Shown here: piece after piece, positions 15,160 to 33,700 of the stretch | How positions within the stretch are numbered: position 1 is the first letter of the stretch | How the letters are laid out: each line of letters begins with the position of its first letter | Virus record (IMG/VR): IMGVR_UViG_3300031368_000001 | Coordinates: 32,001 to 96,000 of that record | Source: a virus | Length of the DNA: 64,000 bases | Direction: 5' to 3' (one strand) | Notes under the pieces: model-generated | What the model was told of the DNA's origin: nothing | The model's input: only the letters and a program-made list of their open reading frames with translations | The model's database searches: none | Position numbers and translations under genes: made by a program

Positions 15160-15182
15160 CTGGTTAATACTGTGCGTTATAC
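15160..15182 (+). mobile_element. Right half of an attC site (L'-R')
   Basis: CTGGTTAA-TACTGTGC-GTTATAC. Confidence 0.6.
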
Positions 15183-15200
15183 GCAAAAGGAAACTTAAAT

Positions 15201-15392
15201 ATGAAATATATATATGCTGTACTCAGGGAGACAGGTGGAGCACACAAAAGTATGGACGTAATGAGCGTGTGGACAAACAAAAAACTCGCCCAGAAAGAGG
15301 CTAATAAATTGAATGTATTAGCATCGGAGGGCTATGAATGTGAAGTGCGTAGATGGATTGTAAATGAAACTGGTGATACAATTAACTGGTAG
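15201..15392 (+). CDS. Cassette 1 hypothetical protein
   Basis: Bounded by GTTATACGC (15176) and its exact reverse complement GCGTATAAC (15392). Confidence 0.75.
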   Translation: MKYIYAVLRETGGAHKSMDVMSVWTNKKLAQKEANKLNVLASEGYECEVRRWIVNETGDTINW

Positions 15393-15393
15393 C

Positions 15394-15452
15394 GTATAAC
15401 CATGCCCCTGAAGCCAACAGCAAATAGCTGCGGCTTACCGGCGGCGTTAGGA
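15394..15452 (+). mobile_element. attC site (59 bp)
   Basis: GTATAAC...T(G)AAGCC...GGCTTA...GTTAGGA; imperfect palindrome with extrahelical base. Confidence 0.8.
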
Positions 15453-15459
15453 GTCAACA

Positions 15460-15729
15460 ATGAGTGTTGTCACAGATATTATTTTGGTTACTGCTATTGA
15501 GGATGGCGCATATAGACCATCATTCGACTTAGTTAAAGTCGACCAATACGCAGGCGGAGGCAAGGCGGTACAGTGCGATGTGTTTATGTCAGCCGTTAAC
15601 TACTTGGTTTTAGAGGATTTACTTGATTGGTTCAAGTCTGTAAGATGGGAATATCCAGAACAGGTGCAACTTTTTGTTAAAGGCGAACACGACGACAAGT
15701 TTGCTGTGTACTGCCCTGAAAACTCCTAA
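15460..15729 (+). CDS. Cassette 2 hypothetical protein
   Basis: Bounded by GTTAGGAGT (15446) and ACTCCTAAC (15722); stop TAA lies inside R''. Confidence 0.8.
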   Translation: MSVVTDIILVTAIEDGAYRPSFDLVKVDQYAGGGKAVQCDVFMSAVNYLVLEDLLDWFKSVRWEYPEQVQLFVKGEHDDKFAVYCPENS

Positions 15730-15790
15730 CCAATCGTTCAACAACCGACCGCCGATACAGCCCTGTGGCGGGTTAACTCAAACGTTAGGT
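15724..15790 (+). mobile_element. attC site (67 bp)
   Basis: TCCTAAC-CAATCG-TT(C)AAC...CCGCC/GGCGG...GTTAA-CTCAAAC-GTTAGGT. Confidence 0.85.
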
Positions 15791-15954
15791 GGCAAGCATG
15801 AGAAAGCCTTTGACAGGGCATAGGCCATATCCGAGTGAAAGGATAGTACAGCCCATGGATAAGGCATCACACATGCAAGTCTGGTTGGCTATAACTATTA
15901 TTGGCAATTAGCATTGCTGGTAGTTTAGGCAGTTCGATTCTGCCATTGCCACCT
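15788..15954 (+). ncRNA. tRNA-like RNA with expanded D-arm region (cassette 3)
   Basis: GGTGGCAA/TTGCCACC terminal stem; T-arm GGCAG-TTCGATT-CTGCC (15928-15944); long hairpin before it; no + strand ORF in the track. Confidence 0.6.
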
Positions 15955-16012
15955 AATAAATCCCTGAACCAGACGCCATAAAGCTCGGCGCTGGTTAGCT
16001 CAAGCGTTAAGG
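15951..16012 (+). mobile_element. attC site (62 bp)
   Basis: ACCTAAT-AAATCC-CT(G)AACCAG(A)CGCC...GGCG-CTGGTTAG-CTCAAGC-GTTAAGG; two extrahelical bases at canonical positions. Confidence 0.85.
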
Positions 16013-16021
16013 AGGAAAAAA

Positions 16022-16180
16022 ATGAAAATGTCAGTAAAAGAGTTTGATTCATTGACAAAGAGAGATTTTGACAATGGAGCGGTTAGGGATGCTATTCGCA
16101 ATAGCTTAAAAGAGTGTGAAAAATTGCTTGCCTCCCAACAAGTCGTTGAAGCAGACCGCGCTAATCGCACGACTGATTAA
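16022..16180 (+). CDS. Cassette 4, 52-aa ORF reading into its attC
   Basis: SD AAGGAGG; MKMSVKEFDSLTKRDFDNGAVRDAIRNSLKECEKLLASQQVVEADRANRTTD*; below the ORF-track cutoff. Confidence 0.6.
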   Translation: MKMSVKEFDSLTKRDFDNGAVRDAIRNSLKECEKLLASQQVVEADRANRTTD

Positions 16181-16194
16181 CTCAGGCGTTATAA
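16133..16194 (+). mobile_element. attC site (62 bp)
   Basis: TCCCAAC-AAGTCG-TT(G)AAGCAG(A)...CTGATTAA-CTCAGGC-GTTATAA. Confidence 0.85.
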
Positions 16195-16207
16195 TTTAAG
16201 AGGAAAA

Positions 16208-16456
16208 ATGAAAGAAGAAAAAAAAATATGCGACATGATTTTAAGTACTGTTTCACGCTTCAATGATGCTCAAAGTATTGGGATTGAGGTTCTAGAGAAA
16301 TATAAGAACATGGATAAAGGCATAGTTCCAGAGTTGCAAGAAATCGCTTTTCATGTTCAGAGTTTAGCACGAGGCTGGCGTTCTCAGCAAGATCGGGCAG
16401 ATGAGTGTTATGAGAAATATGCTGCATATAAAAAATATTGCAATGAAAATCTATAA
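16208..16456 (+). CDS. Cassette 5 hypothetical protein (attC deleted after R'')
   Basis: Starts after GTTATA (16188); ends in CTATAAC (16451-16457). Confidence 0.7.
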   Translation: MKEEKKICDMILSTVSRFNDAQSIGIEVLEKYKNMDKGIVPELQEIAFHVQSLARGWRSQQDRADECYEKYAAYKKYCNENL

Positions 16457-16474
16457 CAATAAGGAGGAAAAACC

Positions 16475-16744: not shown

Positions 16745-17000
16745 ATATGAGAAGCGCTATGGCCAGCGCAAGAGCGAGAACTTTAAATGAAAAATTCCAT
16801 AAAAGTGCTGAAAACACTGTAAATAGATTACTAACAAGCCCCACACATTCAGCAAGAGTCTCTACAAAGTTAGCTAAACATATTTTGATACAACATGAAA
16901 CTCTCTTATATAATGGAATAGTATATTCTACTCACGTAAGAAATATAGGCGCTGGTGTAAAGGAATTATATTTAAAGGAATTTCATGAGGAGATAAGACC

Positions 17001-17345
17001 ATGACTGATAATGATGCCATGACCGACAATAACACCATCCGTGATGTAAACACCGTCCGTGATGTAAACACCGTCCGTGATGTAAACACCGTCCGTGATG
17101 TAATAAAATTTAAAGTACATGTGATAAGAACAGGCTGGGCAAGTTTGGATATTGCTATCGCTGCAAAAGATAAGGATAGTGCAAAAACAAAAATTATGGA
17201 TACTATTGGAGACTATGAATTCTCAGAATATGATGCTGAGTATGAAATAGAATCTATGGAGATAATACCATGACTGACAATACTATGACTGATAATACCA
17301 TGACCGATAATAATATGACTGATAATAACACCGTCCGTGATGTAA
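17001..17345 (+). repeat. 18-bp (NTVRDV) and 15-bp (MTDNT) coding tandem repeats shared by ORFs 17001-17273 and 17270-17497
   Basis: AACACCGTCCGTGATGTA x4; ATGACTGAYAATA units. Confidence 0.9.
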
Positions 17346-17506
17346 TGAAAGATCGTATCCGGGATCTGTTGGCTGGATATTTTAGGATAGATAATTTAGA
17401 TGTAGACGCTGATCTCGTAGCCAATATAGCTGATGAAGCTTTTTCGGTGACAGGGATAAGTGAGAAAGAACAGGATGAGGAGTGGAAAATTTTATAGAGG
17501 TTAGCT

Positions 17507-17577: not shown

Positions 17578-18087
17578 TGTCTGGGTTTTCTCTTGTTCTA
17601 AGAGATCAAAAATGAAAAATAAAAGCCGGTCCTTTAGGAAATCCTTAATGGTTGTGAGAAAAAGTAGCTGTGAGAAAAAAAAAGAAAATATCATGAATAC
17701 TTACATAGGCACTTACCAGGATATGATAGAAAGAACTGTAGAGCTGATCCTTGCCGCGGCAGAAAAAATTCATAATAAAGATGCTATAAGTCGGATTTAC
17801 ACGGCCAACAGAGAGGTTGACACAAAAATTGGCAATATTATGGAGAATATCAGAAAGAAGAAGAGATCATGACTAAACAGGAAAAGCGTAAGTACTGCAT
17901 CGGCTGTAGAGACAATTTCTACAACGGCAATAATCCATATGGCATTAAGGAATGCTGGAATCTTAAAGATGCAAAATTCGTGAAAAGAAAAAAGATTCCT
18001 ATAGATTTGAGCCCACCTTATGATCATATAAAAAAACAGAAAGTTTTGAGCTGCTATGGCCAAAAGGGGTATGTATATTGGTAGTTA

Positions 18088-18182
18088 GGTGGTAAATGCT
18101 GCTTATAAGCAGAGGGTCAGCTTGTATCTGACGTTTGATAGTAAACAAAACTATCATGCAGGGTTAAATCTGTATACCACCT
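18088..18182 (+). ncRNA. Non-canonical tRNA-like cloverleaf, anticodon TGT, long variable arm (cassette)
   Basis: Acceptor GGTGGTA/TACCACC; D-arm CTGCT-TATA-AGCAG; anticodon arm GTCAG-CTTGTAT-CTGAC; variable arm TGATAGT/ACTATCA; T-arm TGCAG-GGTTAAAT-CTGTA. Confidence 0.65.
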
Positions 18183-18236
18183 AACCAACCCACTAAGCTC
18201 GATAGCTAAAATTGCTGGTTAATTCAAGCGTTAGAT
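18179..18236 (+). mobile_element. attC site (58 bp, degenerate L'')
   Basis: ACCTAAC...CTGGTTAA-TTCAAGC-GTTAGAT; right arm nearly identical to that of attC 15951-16012. Confidence 0.7.
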
Positions 18237-18253
18237 TCATCAAGGAGGTAAAC

Positions 18254-18451
18254 ATGGAAATAGACGAAATTATAAATAACTTGGGCAAAAAAATATCAAC
18301 TCCAAAAGGAAATCAATTATTAGCTGGTTTTCAAATTGCAGTGTTAATGGAAAACAATAAATTAAAAGCATATCCTCAATCAATATCATTAATCTGTTGG
18401 TCAGATAATGGTGGAAAATATATGCATTGGGCAATTGATTGTAAAAAATAA
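18254..18451 (+). CDS. Cassette hypothetical protein
   Basis: SD AAGGAGG then ATG at 18254; stop inside R''-like AAATAAC. Confidence 0.65.
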   Translation: MEIDEIINNLGKKISTPKGNQLLAGFQIAVLMENNKLKAYPQSISLICWSDNGGKYMHWAIDCKK

Positions 18452-18506
18452 CAAGCCGGTTGAGTCTAACGCTCATAAACTCGCGTGTCTTACCTCACCA
18501 TTATAC
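18446..18506 (+). mobile_element. Degenerate attC (crossover G>A)
   Basis: AAATAAC-AAGCCG-GTTGAG...CTTAC-CTCACC-ATTATAC. Confidence 0.5.
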
Positions 18507-30787: not shown

Positions 30788-33700
30788 ATGAATCTCCCCA
30801 ACTCTGAATCGATCAGTTACTGGAAAACAAGTCAATCTTCTCCGGATAAATGGATTGAACGAGCTAGTAGAGTTATCGAACAATATGACGGTAAGGTGCT
30901 TGCTGAAGGATTTGGTAGCAACGCTAACAGCCATGCTGCGTATATGATTGGTTTTGAGATGCATGGTGAAAAATTCAAGGCAGTCTGGCCTGTACTTCCG
31001 TCAGATACGAAAAATGAAAGAGCAGCTAGGATTCAGGCAGCTACTTTGCTTTACCACGACATAAAAGCTAAGTGTATCTCAGCTACGGTGCTAGGAGCCA
31101 GGGTAGCATTTTTTAGTTATCTTATGTTACCAGATGGAAGAACTGCTGGTGAGGCTACGGAGAAAGAATTGCTGGAAGGGATCCCGAAACAAATATTGTT
31201 GACAGAGATATGAGGAAAAGAGATGGAAGCTCGCATTAAAACAATTATATTTATTGGTTGGTTTTTGATTACAATAAGTTCTTCTATTTGTGTCATGATA
31301 GAAGTATGGCGATGTAGGTGGATAGAATGTTTTCTGTACCTGGCATTAATTTTTATAATTAATGCTACTCTTAGAATTATCTCTAAAAAAAAGATAAAAC
31401 AGAATGGCAAATAAAACAATCAAAACCATAGATCAATTTAGGAAGACATATTTTCCTAAAGAATATGAAAGACAGAAATTGAGTGAGATGTCATCCACAG
31501 AGCTTGGAGAGGACCTGGCAAAAAAGTTTATAATTAAGATCAGGAAAAAATATGGAAAAGAGATAAAATGTTCTTCATTAAAGGTTACCACAACATAAAA
31601 TTTGGTAAAGTTATTAAACCTAAGAAGGGTTTACCATATATCAAAATCATTTTGCTAAAACCAGGCGCACCGGATAAAACCATAGAAGCAGGCTCTGTGA
31701 TCTGGGATCTCAAGAAAAAACAGTGGGAGTTGAGAACACGGAAAGAAACGGATGAATTAGTGAAAGAGATGGGGGGGGAGAGATGACCTTCTTTTTTAAA
31801 CAAAAAAATATATAGGCTTCGATCAGAAGGCGAAATTATCCCCCCGTGGTATTTTAGTCTTGTTTATATAGATTATATGCACAGAAAAGATATCTGGTGT
31901 CCAATTCCTTTGAATTATATTCTCAGAGCTATGAAATTTATAGAATACTCTTGGATAAATTTCGTTCAAAGCCTACATGGATAGACAAAAGAGTCGAAAA
32001 GTATATAAGCAAAATTAATAAAGGAAGGAAAAACTAATGTCTCGACCAAAAATAGACTGGGATGAGCTACTTGATGGTTATAATGAAATGTATGATTTTC
32101 ACTTTAACACCATAGAAGAGTTTGTAAAGAGTTTGTATGATATTCATCGAATCGAGGAAGCCGCAAAAATTCTCGGAGTTTCTACATCAGTATTTCAGGA
32201 GAAAATGGCTGAACTAAAAATTCCTCGGGAACCAAAAGGACATCGAAAACCAACTAAGCTTGATAAGTTTAAGGCCTTAGATGATAACGAAGCTTTTAAG
32301 TTACCTCTTGGAGAAACAGCTAAGTTAGTCAATGTTTCAGATAACCATGCACAGGTACTGCGATCATTGCGGAAAAGAGGATACGAATATTATGAAGGTC
32401 AGAAAAGAAAGAAGAAAAATGCTAGTTTTTCAAGATCCTGAAAAACAAAAAAGGCTTGAGTGGATAGTAAACTATTTGGTTGAAGAAAATTTTCTACCTG
32501 AGCATTTAGATGCTATCATCAAAATAATCGGATTATTTAATGATTGTGAGGAATCAGAAACAGAAATATTTGAATTTGTTGATAAATTAGAAACGAAATA
32601 CTCAGAATAAAGGGAGGACACAATATGTCTGAACCAATTAAAAGTATAACTAAGTGTGAATTTTGCGGAGCTTCTATAGAAATAGTAAGTCCGCCACTGC
32701 ACGAATATTATGAAGCTGGTCAAATTCAAATAGAAAAAGGAACAATTCTGCTGTCAGAGAAGATAATCAAAGCTCATCATAAAGATGGATATTCAGATAG
32801 CCATTGTAAGCATATCGATGGATATTATTGTAATACTGCTTGTTTGATGGCAAAACTGAGAGAGATCTTGGTTTAACACGAGTATAAACCACTCACGAGT
32901 TAATTCAGGTATAGGAACAATTATGTATAAAATTACCGATGAAAAAATCAAGAAAGCCAAGCGGAAACTTGCAAAAATGTCTAAAGAAAAAAAGTGGGAT
33001 TTAATAGAAAAATCTTTTGGGATGTGGGCAGATAATTCTCATACAGATGGGAACGCCGATTGGGATGGTTCTTTTCTAACAATTAACTCAGTAAGCGTGA
33101 GGTGTGCTGAAACTCAATAATTAAAAGAAAAAAATGAACTAAAGATATCATAAGAATAGGAGGAAATTCAAATAATGCTTAATGAAGAAAAACGATTTCA
33201 GTCAGTAGAACTAGAGGCCTTGAAATTTAAGATTGAAAAAACTTTTCCTACTATTCAGGAAGTGGATCCTAAATTCAGATTTGATAGTATTTTACAACAA
33301 GGAATACTTGAACTCCAAACAAAAATTTGGGCTGAGTGTTTACAAACCAAGTCAAAAGTTGTAACCCATGAATTCTGCTTTCCAAGAACCTGGTGGCAAC
33401 ATCTCAAAAAAGAAAAATTTCCTGGGTGGCTTCTTAAAAAATTTCCTATCGACTTTAAAAAAGAAATTCAGAAAACGCGGATTAGATTTCAGCAATATGC
33501 AAAATTTCCGAGCTTTAATTATAAATCTGACAAAAAATTTGAAAAGTTTGTCATTGAAGAGATTATGGACGCTAAAGAAATTCTATCCGAGCATAAAATT
33601 GATAAGATCAAGTAGGTTCACTCTTCGTAAAACTTACGCTTGGTAAAAAGCGTTATGTGGAATTACTTTAAACAAAATTGGAAGCAAATAATTCATATCC

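Follow-up and report, generated by a model that had tools for sequence, protein, structure and literature searches.

The window analysed here, a stretch of 64,000 nt (positions 32,001 to 96,000 of IMG/VR record IMGVR_UViG_3300031368_000001), belongs to an uncultured ~108-kb phage (record 108,285 bp, CheckV 77% complete) and holds, in an early plus-strand region, an array of five integron-type cassettes. The third of these is a short cassette with a highly structured body but no supported gene (Table 1), and the element discussed below, 15784-15957, is its cargo.

Table 1. Features of the gene-less cassette, its sister and the third element in a related phage (window coordinates unless stated otherwise)
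Feature	Position	Strand	Basis
Upstream cassette's attC	15722..15790	+	model R1, 50.1 bits; site among the 11 training sequences
Gene-less integron-type cassette, body and own attC, 222 bp	15785..16006	+	bounds from the two flanking attC sites
Closing helix, 8 bp	GGUGGCAA 15788-15795 with UUGCCACC 15946-15953	+	MFE fold
5' strand of closing helix: right half of R' and 5-nt extension, holding the SD-like AGGTGG	15784..15795	+	MFE fold
Irregular 80-nt arm, closed by GCAUG/CAUGC	15796..15876	+	MFE fold
37-codon ORF P0129 (rival coding reading)	15798..15911	+	ATG 15798 behind the SD-like AGGTGG
Small weak hairpin AGUC-UGGUU-GGCU, 4 bp, 5-nt loop	15878..15890	+	MFE fold
12-bp hairpin, four G.U pairs, loop UAGC	15897..15924	+	MFE fold
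T-arm-like hairpin GGCAG-TTCGATT-CTGCC	15928..15944	+	read from sequence; motif scan
3' strand of closing helix: extended R'' of the cassette's attC (ACCTAAT)	15946..15957	+	MFE fold, attC alignment
Cassette's own attC	15949..16012	+	model R1, 65.6 bits, E 7e-14; site among the 11 training sequences
Sister gene-less cassette body	18084..18183	+	fold, -39.2 kcal/mol, z -6.4
Sister cassette's attC	18177..18236	+	model R1, 47.7 bits; site among the 11 training sequences
Third gene-less cassette, related phage	L020:19224-19381		fold

When reading the upstream attC directly, R'' CCTAAC is followed after 5 nt by L'' GTTCAAC and then by L' GTTAACT, CAAAC and R', and the element's cassette starts at the G|TT crossover point within this R' (GTTAGGT, 15784-15790). 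The cassette's own attC has the layout R'', AAATC, L'' CCTGAAC, stem-loop, L' GTTAGCT, CAAGC and R', and aligns with 10 other attC sites of the same genome. The consensus from these 11 sites is R'' ..TAAC, 5 nt, L'' with an extra base, a stem-loop, L' GTTAGCT, CARGC and R' GTTRRRY; the R'' of the element's cassette has a T (TAAT) where the consensus has a C (TAAC). A covariance model, R1, built from the 11 sites recovers all of its training sites (46.6–66.9 bits) and revealed four extra sites past the end of the window (genome 102000-108285, minus strand), giving five sites inside the window and ten outside. The motif TTARYTCARRCGTTA is present in six copies in the 108,285-bp genome. Among related phages the model found one attC site in L011/L010 and six in L020, and it matched 29 of the 151 genomes sampled from a single bacterial class, a tally that counts the unpublished genomes G041 and G143. 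The element is therefore bounded by canonical attC sites (its own, a training site, at 65.6 bits), in agreement with the original prediction, made from the letters alone, that it is carried as a cassette. A MITE with inverted-repeat ends was ruled out because CCACCTAAY lies at the canonical 5-nt spacing from the L'' of a real attC, and no nested or degenerate attC was seen within the 164-nt body.

Integron crossover takes place at G|TT, so that a cassette opens with the right half of the R' it originally had and its 5' end is complementary to its own R''. In the element this complementarity extends over 11 of 11 positions (TTAGGTGGCAA with TTGCCACCTAA) and in the sister likewise over 11 bp, while in other cassettes it is about 9 bp, in one case gapped (overall range 9–12 bp). 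Since the pairing is present in every cassette, the terminal helix is a property of the cassette architecture and not specific to a tRNA.

Folding of the sense strand of the element gave a minimum free energy of -66.5 kcal/mol (z -4.9), a value equalled by none of 200 shuffles, compared with -56.2 kcal/mol (z -4.0) for the antisense strand, and the domain fold is kept when folded within a 301-nt context. With the R'/R'' ends removed the interior has z -2.4 in the sense direction (4 of 200 dinucleotide shuffles equal) and z -1.3 in the antisense direction (dinucleotide shuffles), and comparing -2.4 for the interior with -4.9 for the whole shows that much of the significance of the fold is due to the terminal helix. 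All parts of the structure originally described were recovered by folding: an 8-bp terminal stem, which can be extended through TTA/TAA to 11 bp plus one G.U pair, a large domain closed by GCATG/CATGC with two inner stems, a weak arm, a 12-bp variable-like hairpin and a textbook T-arm. The inner stems of the 80-nt arm are GCCUU/AAGGC and AUAUCC/GGAUAG, the latter forming the apical hairpin AUAUCC-GAGUGAAA-GGAUAG, and the arm has a GC content of 0.48 as against 0.37 for the genome. The weak arm, originally drawn with 3 bp and the loop CUGGUUG, can still be drawn so, the fold preferring 4 bp with a 5-nt loop, and its GG-containing loop could equally be read as D-loop-like or as anticodon-like. 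The 12-bp hairpin is complete only on the sense strand and is absent from the antisense fold. Between the T-arm and the 3' strand of the closing helix there is a gap of 1 nt, a single unpaired A. Genome-wide, five motifs of the T-arm type were found where 2.7 are expected, so the motif alone is not rare; the unusual point is that it immediately adjoins the closing helix in a cassette without a gene.

ARAGORN called neither a tRNA nor a tmRNA in the window, and Rfam, proposed from the start as a check, returned no match at gathering scores and, when 241 nt were searched with the cutoff relaxed to E<=10, still no tRNA. If the 80-nt arm is taken out in silico, ARAGORN reports a weak tRNA-Pro(tgg), at the 80% threshold only, which makes use of the weak hairpin. 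As a positive control the same kind of short-region search at E<=10 gave a tRNA-Sec match (17.4 bits, E 0.3) at L020:13070-13137. This intergenic, 68-nt tRNA-like gene (JGI contig Ga0315547_1001266), which ARAGORN misses, pairs its acceptor over 7 bp (GCGGGGA/TCCCCGC) and its D-stem over 3 bp, with GG in the D-loop; its anticodon loop is 9 nt long, and its T-arm, GCCAG-TTCGATT-CTGGT, has 13 nt in common with the T-arm of the element.

When comparing the element with a tRNA part by part, the T-arm has the 5-bp stem and the 7-nt TTCRANY loop, at 15928-15944. The acceptor of a tRNA, with 7 bp stacked on the T-stem, a discriminator and CCA, is lacking; the closing helix is 8 bp long and extends to 11–12, is separated from the T-stem by one unpaired A and followed by UAAU rather than NCCA, and coincides with the attC R-box. 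Together with the T-stem it makes up 14–17 bp, as against 12 bp in tRNA. The element has neither a D-arm bearing G18 G19 nor an anticodon arm of 5 bp with U33 in a 7-nt loop, the D position being taken by the 80-nt arm while the only candidate for an anticodon arm has 3–4 bp. The 8-bp helix, G-GUGGCAA/UUGCCAC-C, may be reminiscent of the acceptor with G-1:C73 in bacterial tRNA-His. For the antisense of the T-arm Rfam gave a weak Plastid-ycf2 match (14.9 bits), which we take to be an antisense-tRNA-like match. The element is not a decoding tRNA and not a tRNA gene, and the designation "tRNA mimic" goes beyond what the sequence shows: its acceptor is the R'/R'' pairing of all cassettes, it has no D-arm and only a weak anticodon-like arm, and ARAGORN and Rfam are both negative. 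As to the suggested resemblance to tmRNA and Y RNA, Rfam gave no tmRNA or YrlA match and ARAGORN no tmRNA. What survives as the core of the tRNA likeness is that a canonical T-loop hairpin adjoins the closing helix, a feature repeated in an independent third element (see below).

Searches for homologues of the element using blastn against phages and plasmids were negative, as were a pattern search of IMG/VR combining T-arm and acceptor and a pattern search of JGI metagenomes. Neither for the element nor for its sister or the third element was a homologue found in the collections searched, and consequently the fold has no support from covariation. A pattern anchored at the ends gave three matches in IMG/VR that were judged to be due to chance, one lying in an iteron origin that follows a primase gene (L006) and two being coding-like by eye (L007 and L008). 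The first of these regions, L006:2640-2980 (IMG/VR 3300021255_000599), is rich in iterons, with GCCACCCAAGA repeats both direct and inverted, lies just past a primase/VapE-like gene and is probably a replication origin.

A second gene-less cassette, the sister, lies further downstream in the window. Its body shows an 11-bp R'/R'' helix, three perfect hairpins (5, 5 and 7 bp) and a degenerate T-like hairpin; dinucleotide shuffles give P about 0.0005 for three perfect hairpins in 78 nt. The fourth hairpin, UGCAG-GGUUAAAU-CUGUA, looks like a degenerate T-arm. The hairpins, being perfectly Watson-Crick paired, are strand-symmetric, and the interior folds with z -2.7 in antisense against z -1.7 in sense. 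A 17-mer of the anticodon-like arm of the sister has no matches other than the variable arm of a tRNA-Ser and sequence judged by eye to be coding. The sister has an 11-codon ORF only, at the position matching the 37-codon ORF of the element. No attC immediately precedes the sister (window 18084), and the 5' junction tggtaG|TTAGGTGG follows directly after the stop of the ORF at 17869-18084, which suggests insertion at a GTT site that is not an attC. The R-box TTAGGTGG is common to the element and its sister and occurs in no other cassette here.

The third gene-less cassette was found in the related phage L020 and folds to -79.8 kcal/mol in sense (z -7.4) compared with -59.3 in antisense. It consists of a 10-bp R'/R'' helix, then a further 10-bp stem outside the attC and then three hairpins, of which the 3'-most, CCAGG-TTCAAGA-CCTGG, directly abuts the 3' strand of the stem. 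Here the helix beside the T-arm runs 10 bp past the R-box of the attC and is therefore not merely a by-product of the recombination site. Of the "family" originally proposed, the shared architecture of the element, the 18085 sister and the third element holds, whereas the three have no sequence homology to each other.

Coding and promoter readings of the cassette were also considered. The cassette starts with TTAGGTGGcaagcATG, in which the SD-like AGGTGG is followed after 5 nt by the ATG at 15798 (+14), and the coding cassettes of the array have a similar start with the ATG at +14 to +25. The original description of the element as ORF-less has to be qualified by this 37-codon ORF behind an SD-like sequence. 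A search of 1.84 billion representative proteins gave the 37-aa product one match, a repeat artefact, and no homologue, and Pfam gave no family for it or for the antisense 63-aa ORF. At this base composition the chance of a 37-codon open frame is estimated at roughly 9%. The frame ends 38 nt before R'' while those of the coding cassettes reach or enter R'', and its SD and start codon lie within the closing helix. The antisense ORF spans the attC and the cassette boundary and, having neither homologue nor Pfam family, was discarded as the conserved element that the original prediction had considered it might be. Within 15785-16006 no promoter-like site (by consensus scan only) and no terminator-like site was identified, and a promoter or terminator cassette was rejected since no such site lies inside the element.

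To compare cassettes with and without genes, one and the same test was applied to the short cassettes of three arrays, with the R'/R'' ends removed and mononucleotide shuffles. The 13 short coding cassettes gave z from -2.5 to +0.7, and the gene-less ones, defined for this purpose as cassettes without a cassette-filling ORF, gave -3.2 (element), -3.5 (sister) and -3.4 (L020:19225-19372); by this test the gene-less trio folds better than 12 of the 13 coding ones (-3.2 to -3.5 against a best coding value of -2.5). Two of the three exceed all other short cassettes in GC content (0.45 and 0.52), the sister at 0.39 being within the coding range of 0.30–0.43. The sense strand folds better in two of the three, the element and the L020 cassette. 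Hairpins resembling a T-arm (5-bp stem, TTCRANN loop) have a background of 3–4e-5 per nt per strand in these phages, so about 0.015 would be expected in the ~400 nt of gene-less bodies, and a T-arm beside the closing helix was found in two of the three; the Poisson P for two T-arms in this tRNA-like position is about 1e-4, in a test chosen after the data were seen.

No tyrosine recombinase (PF00589) was matched in the 108-kb record, 77% complete according to CheckV, from which it follows that the arrays are integrase-less (CALIN) and do not form a complete integron. INPHARED and IMG/VR hold no close relatives of the phage, but relatives are present in JGI metagenomes. In one of these, L011, the helicase is 73% identical and there is synteny on both sides of the array (window 14618-14761 matches L011 2313-2456 and window 16487-16629 matches L011 3186-3328), and between these points L011 has two ordinary overlapping ORFs and no attC. 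The absence of the array from the syntenic L011 indicates that the array is a recent acquisition and that the element lies outside the core of the lineage. Cassettes with the same attC type are found at L020:18234-20341 and L011:9854-9927 (helicases 57% and 73% identical, respectively). The phage lineage appears to have taken up integron cassettes repeatedly and at different genome positions.

The phage cassettes are unusually small, with bodies of 92–275 nt and ORFs of 52–89 aa, apart from three of about 565–690 nt (window 15177-16470 and 18085-18470, and genome 102950-106210, L055). The 22 cassettes from sampled bacterial arrays are all larger, 325–1398 nt, and among them there was no small gene-less cassette and none with a T-arm. 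A cassette protein encoded at window 15460-15729 has homologues of 50–55% identity on Marinicella chromosomes (genome bins), where the setting is not that of an integron, and the phage copy is without ~17 residues found in those homologues. Two further regions with repeats were seen: at window 16980-17350 the adjacent small ORFs 17001-17273 and 17270-17497 start with tandem peptide repeats (MTDN..., TVRDVN x4), and at genome 22576-22727, before the start of the window, there is a tandem array with a 21-nt unit (GAGGAACTTCGTTAGGTTCAT).

That the cassette bears a structured RNA with a tRNA-like minihelix is plausible, and the reading we prefer, in which this is a sense-strand RNA whose minihelix could be used by tRNA-processing enzymes for excision, is given a probability somewhat below one half (about 0.45). 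According to this reading the element would most likely be transcribed within the polycistronic RNA of the array and would there fold into a closed domain of several helices that is complete in itself. The closing helix would be supplied by the cassette architecture and carry the 80-nt arm, two hairpins and the T-loop hairpin, the last of which, stacked on the closing helix, would give the tRNA-like minihelix. RNase P, RNase Z and the CCA-adding enzyme may recognise this minihelix and excise a separate, stable RNA, which would also cut the transcript of the array. The case rests on three elements sharing a shape and not a sequence.

The same observations may be read differently. It is somewhat unlikely that the element is a neutral passenger, i.e. 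a gene-less or decayed cassette captured with its neighbours, in which the R'/R'' helix is joined by chance hairpins and the T-arm is a coincidence, with no function for the phage. The modest interior z of -2.4 with dinucleotide shuffles, the ~2.7 T-arm-like motifs per genome that chance alone would provide, the lack of homologues and the array being missing from the 73%-related L011 all agree with such a history, which on the other hand does not lead one to expect that three gene-less cassettes out-fold 12 of 13 short coding ones, that a T-arm recurs at the same place in the independent L020 element, that the fold favours the sense strand in both of these or that the sister has three perfect hairpins (P about 0.0005). 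A role at the level of DNA or in cis, with hairpins aiding recombination or priming, or with RNA structure tuning the translation or stability of neighbouring cassettes and no separate RNA being made, is judged unlikely. It would fit the sister, with its strand-symmetric hairpins and an interior that folds as well or better in antisense, and the location of the element directly upstream of an attC and of the SD of the next cassette; attC structures are reported (PMC11511950) to shape the expression of downstream cassettes. The element itself argues against it by having neither promoter nor terminator signature inside and by a 12-bp hairpin that needs its four G.U pairs, which are gone on the bottom strand. 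The bottom strand is the one recombined by integrons.

Translation of a 37-aa peptide from the ATG at 15798, in a small-protein cassette, is quite improbable: the SD-like AGGTGG and the +14 spacing are those of coding cassettes, but the peptide lacks both homologue and Pfam family, the frame has a roughly 9% estimated chance of being open anyway, its stop falls 38 nt short of R'' unlike in coding cassettes, its start is buried in the closing helix and in the sister only 11 codons are found at this place. The perfect T-arm and the weak tRNA-Pro(tgg) that ARAGORN reports without the 80-nt arm, at its 80% threshold only, are what an ordinary tRNA gene decayed by a ~80-nt insertion in its D region might leave behind. 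Such a decayed tRNA, a possibility raised in the original prediction as well, is nevertheless very improbable, with no match to the tRNA clan at E<=10, no blastn similarity to phage records, which include many tRNA genes, no D-arm and an "acceptor" that is the R-box of an attC.

Gene-less integron cassettes are common and mostly unexplained and, to our knowledge, only promoter activity has been shown for them experimentally. In Vibrionaceae superintegrons they have been described as promoter cassettes of 491–666 bp (Blanco et al. 2024, PMC11014356), and that report names small RNAs as a proposed role still to be tested. The element resembles these cassettes in being bounded by attC sites and in lacking a credible gene, but differs in its size (222 bp with a 164-nt body), in having no promoter-like site, in being highly structured, in its T-loop hairpin and in its location in a phage. 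CALINs in phage genomes have already been described (Qi et al. 2023, PMC9892861), in a paper whose main text mentions neither tRNA nor ORF-less cassettes; the array studied here is likewise an integrase-less attC array in a phage with co-oriented cassettes, and adds to that description that related phages (L011, L020) carry arrays of the same attC type. Phage tRNAs can act against tRNA-cleaving defences, as does the tRNA-Lys of T5 against PARIS (PMC11464382), and with such tRNAs and tRNA genes the element shares the phage setting, a T-arm beside the closing helix and a cloverleaf-like order of arms; it differs from tRNA genes by having no D-arm or convincing anticodon arm, a closing helix of 8–12 bp, no encoded CCA and negative ARAGORN and Rfam results.

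Among RNAs that are not tRNAs, tmRNA, the bacterial Y RNA YrlA and the T4 stable species 1 and 2 RNAs have tRNA-like domains, and the element may be comparable to them in placing a mimic of acceptor and T-arm on a non-tRNA body, but Rfam matches it neither to tmRNA or YrlA nor to another family. No paper that connects tRNA-like RNAs to integron cassettes came up in a full-text literature search. Both phage CALINs (PMC9892861) and cassettes without genes (PMC11014356) have been described before, and what seems to be new is the presence of tRNA-like features in a gene-less phage cassette.

A far-reaching extension, which we consider doubtful, is that there exists a class of integron cassettes with a tRNA-shaped RNA as cargo in which the R'/R'' pairing serves as the acceptor-like helix, making them mobile mimics collected by phages. 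Such mimics might act as decoys or substitutes against nucleases and toxins that target tRNAs, or as RNase P "punctuation" of the array transcripts. Every cassette transcript comes with a closing helix of its own, since the 5' end of a cassette complements its R'', and this is a ready-made scaffold for the evolution of closed RNA domains. If gene-less cassettes carry RNAs of this kind, integrons would move RNA genes besides protein genes, and the cassette arrays of phages would be a place to seek RNA-based modules for counter-defence or transcript processing.
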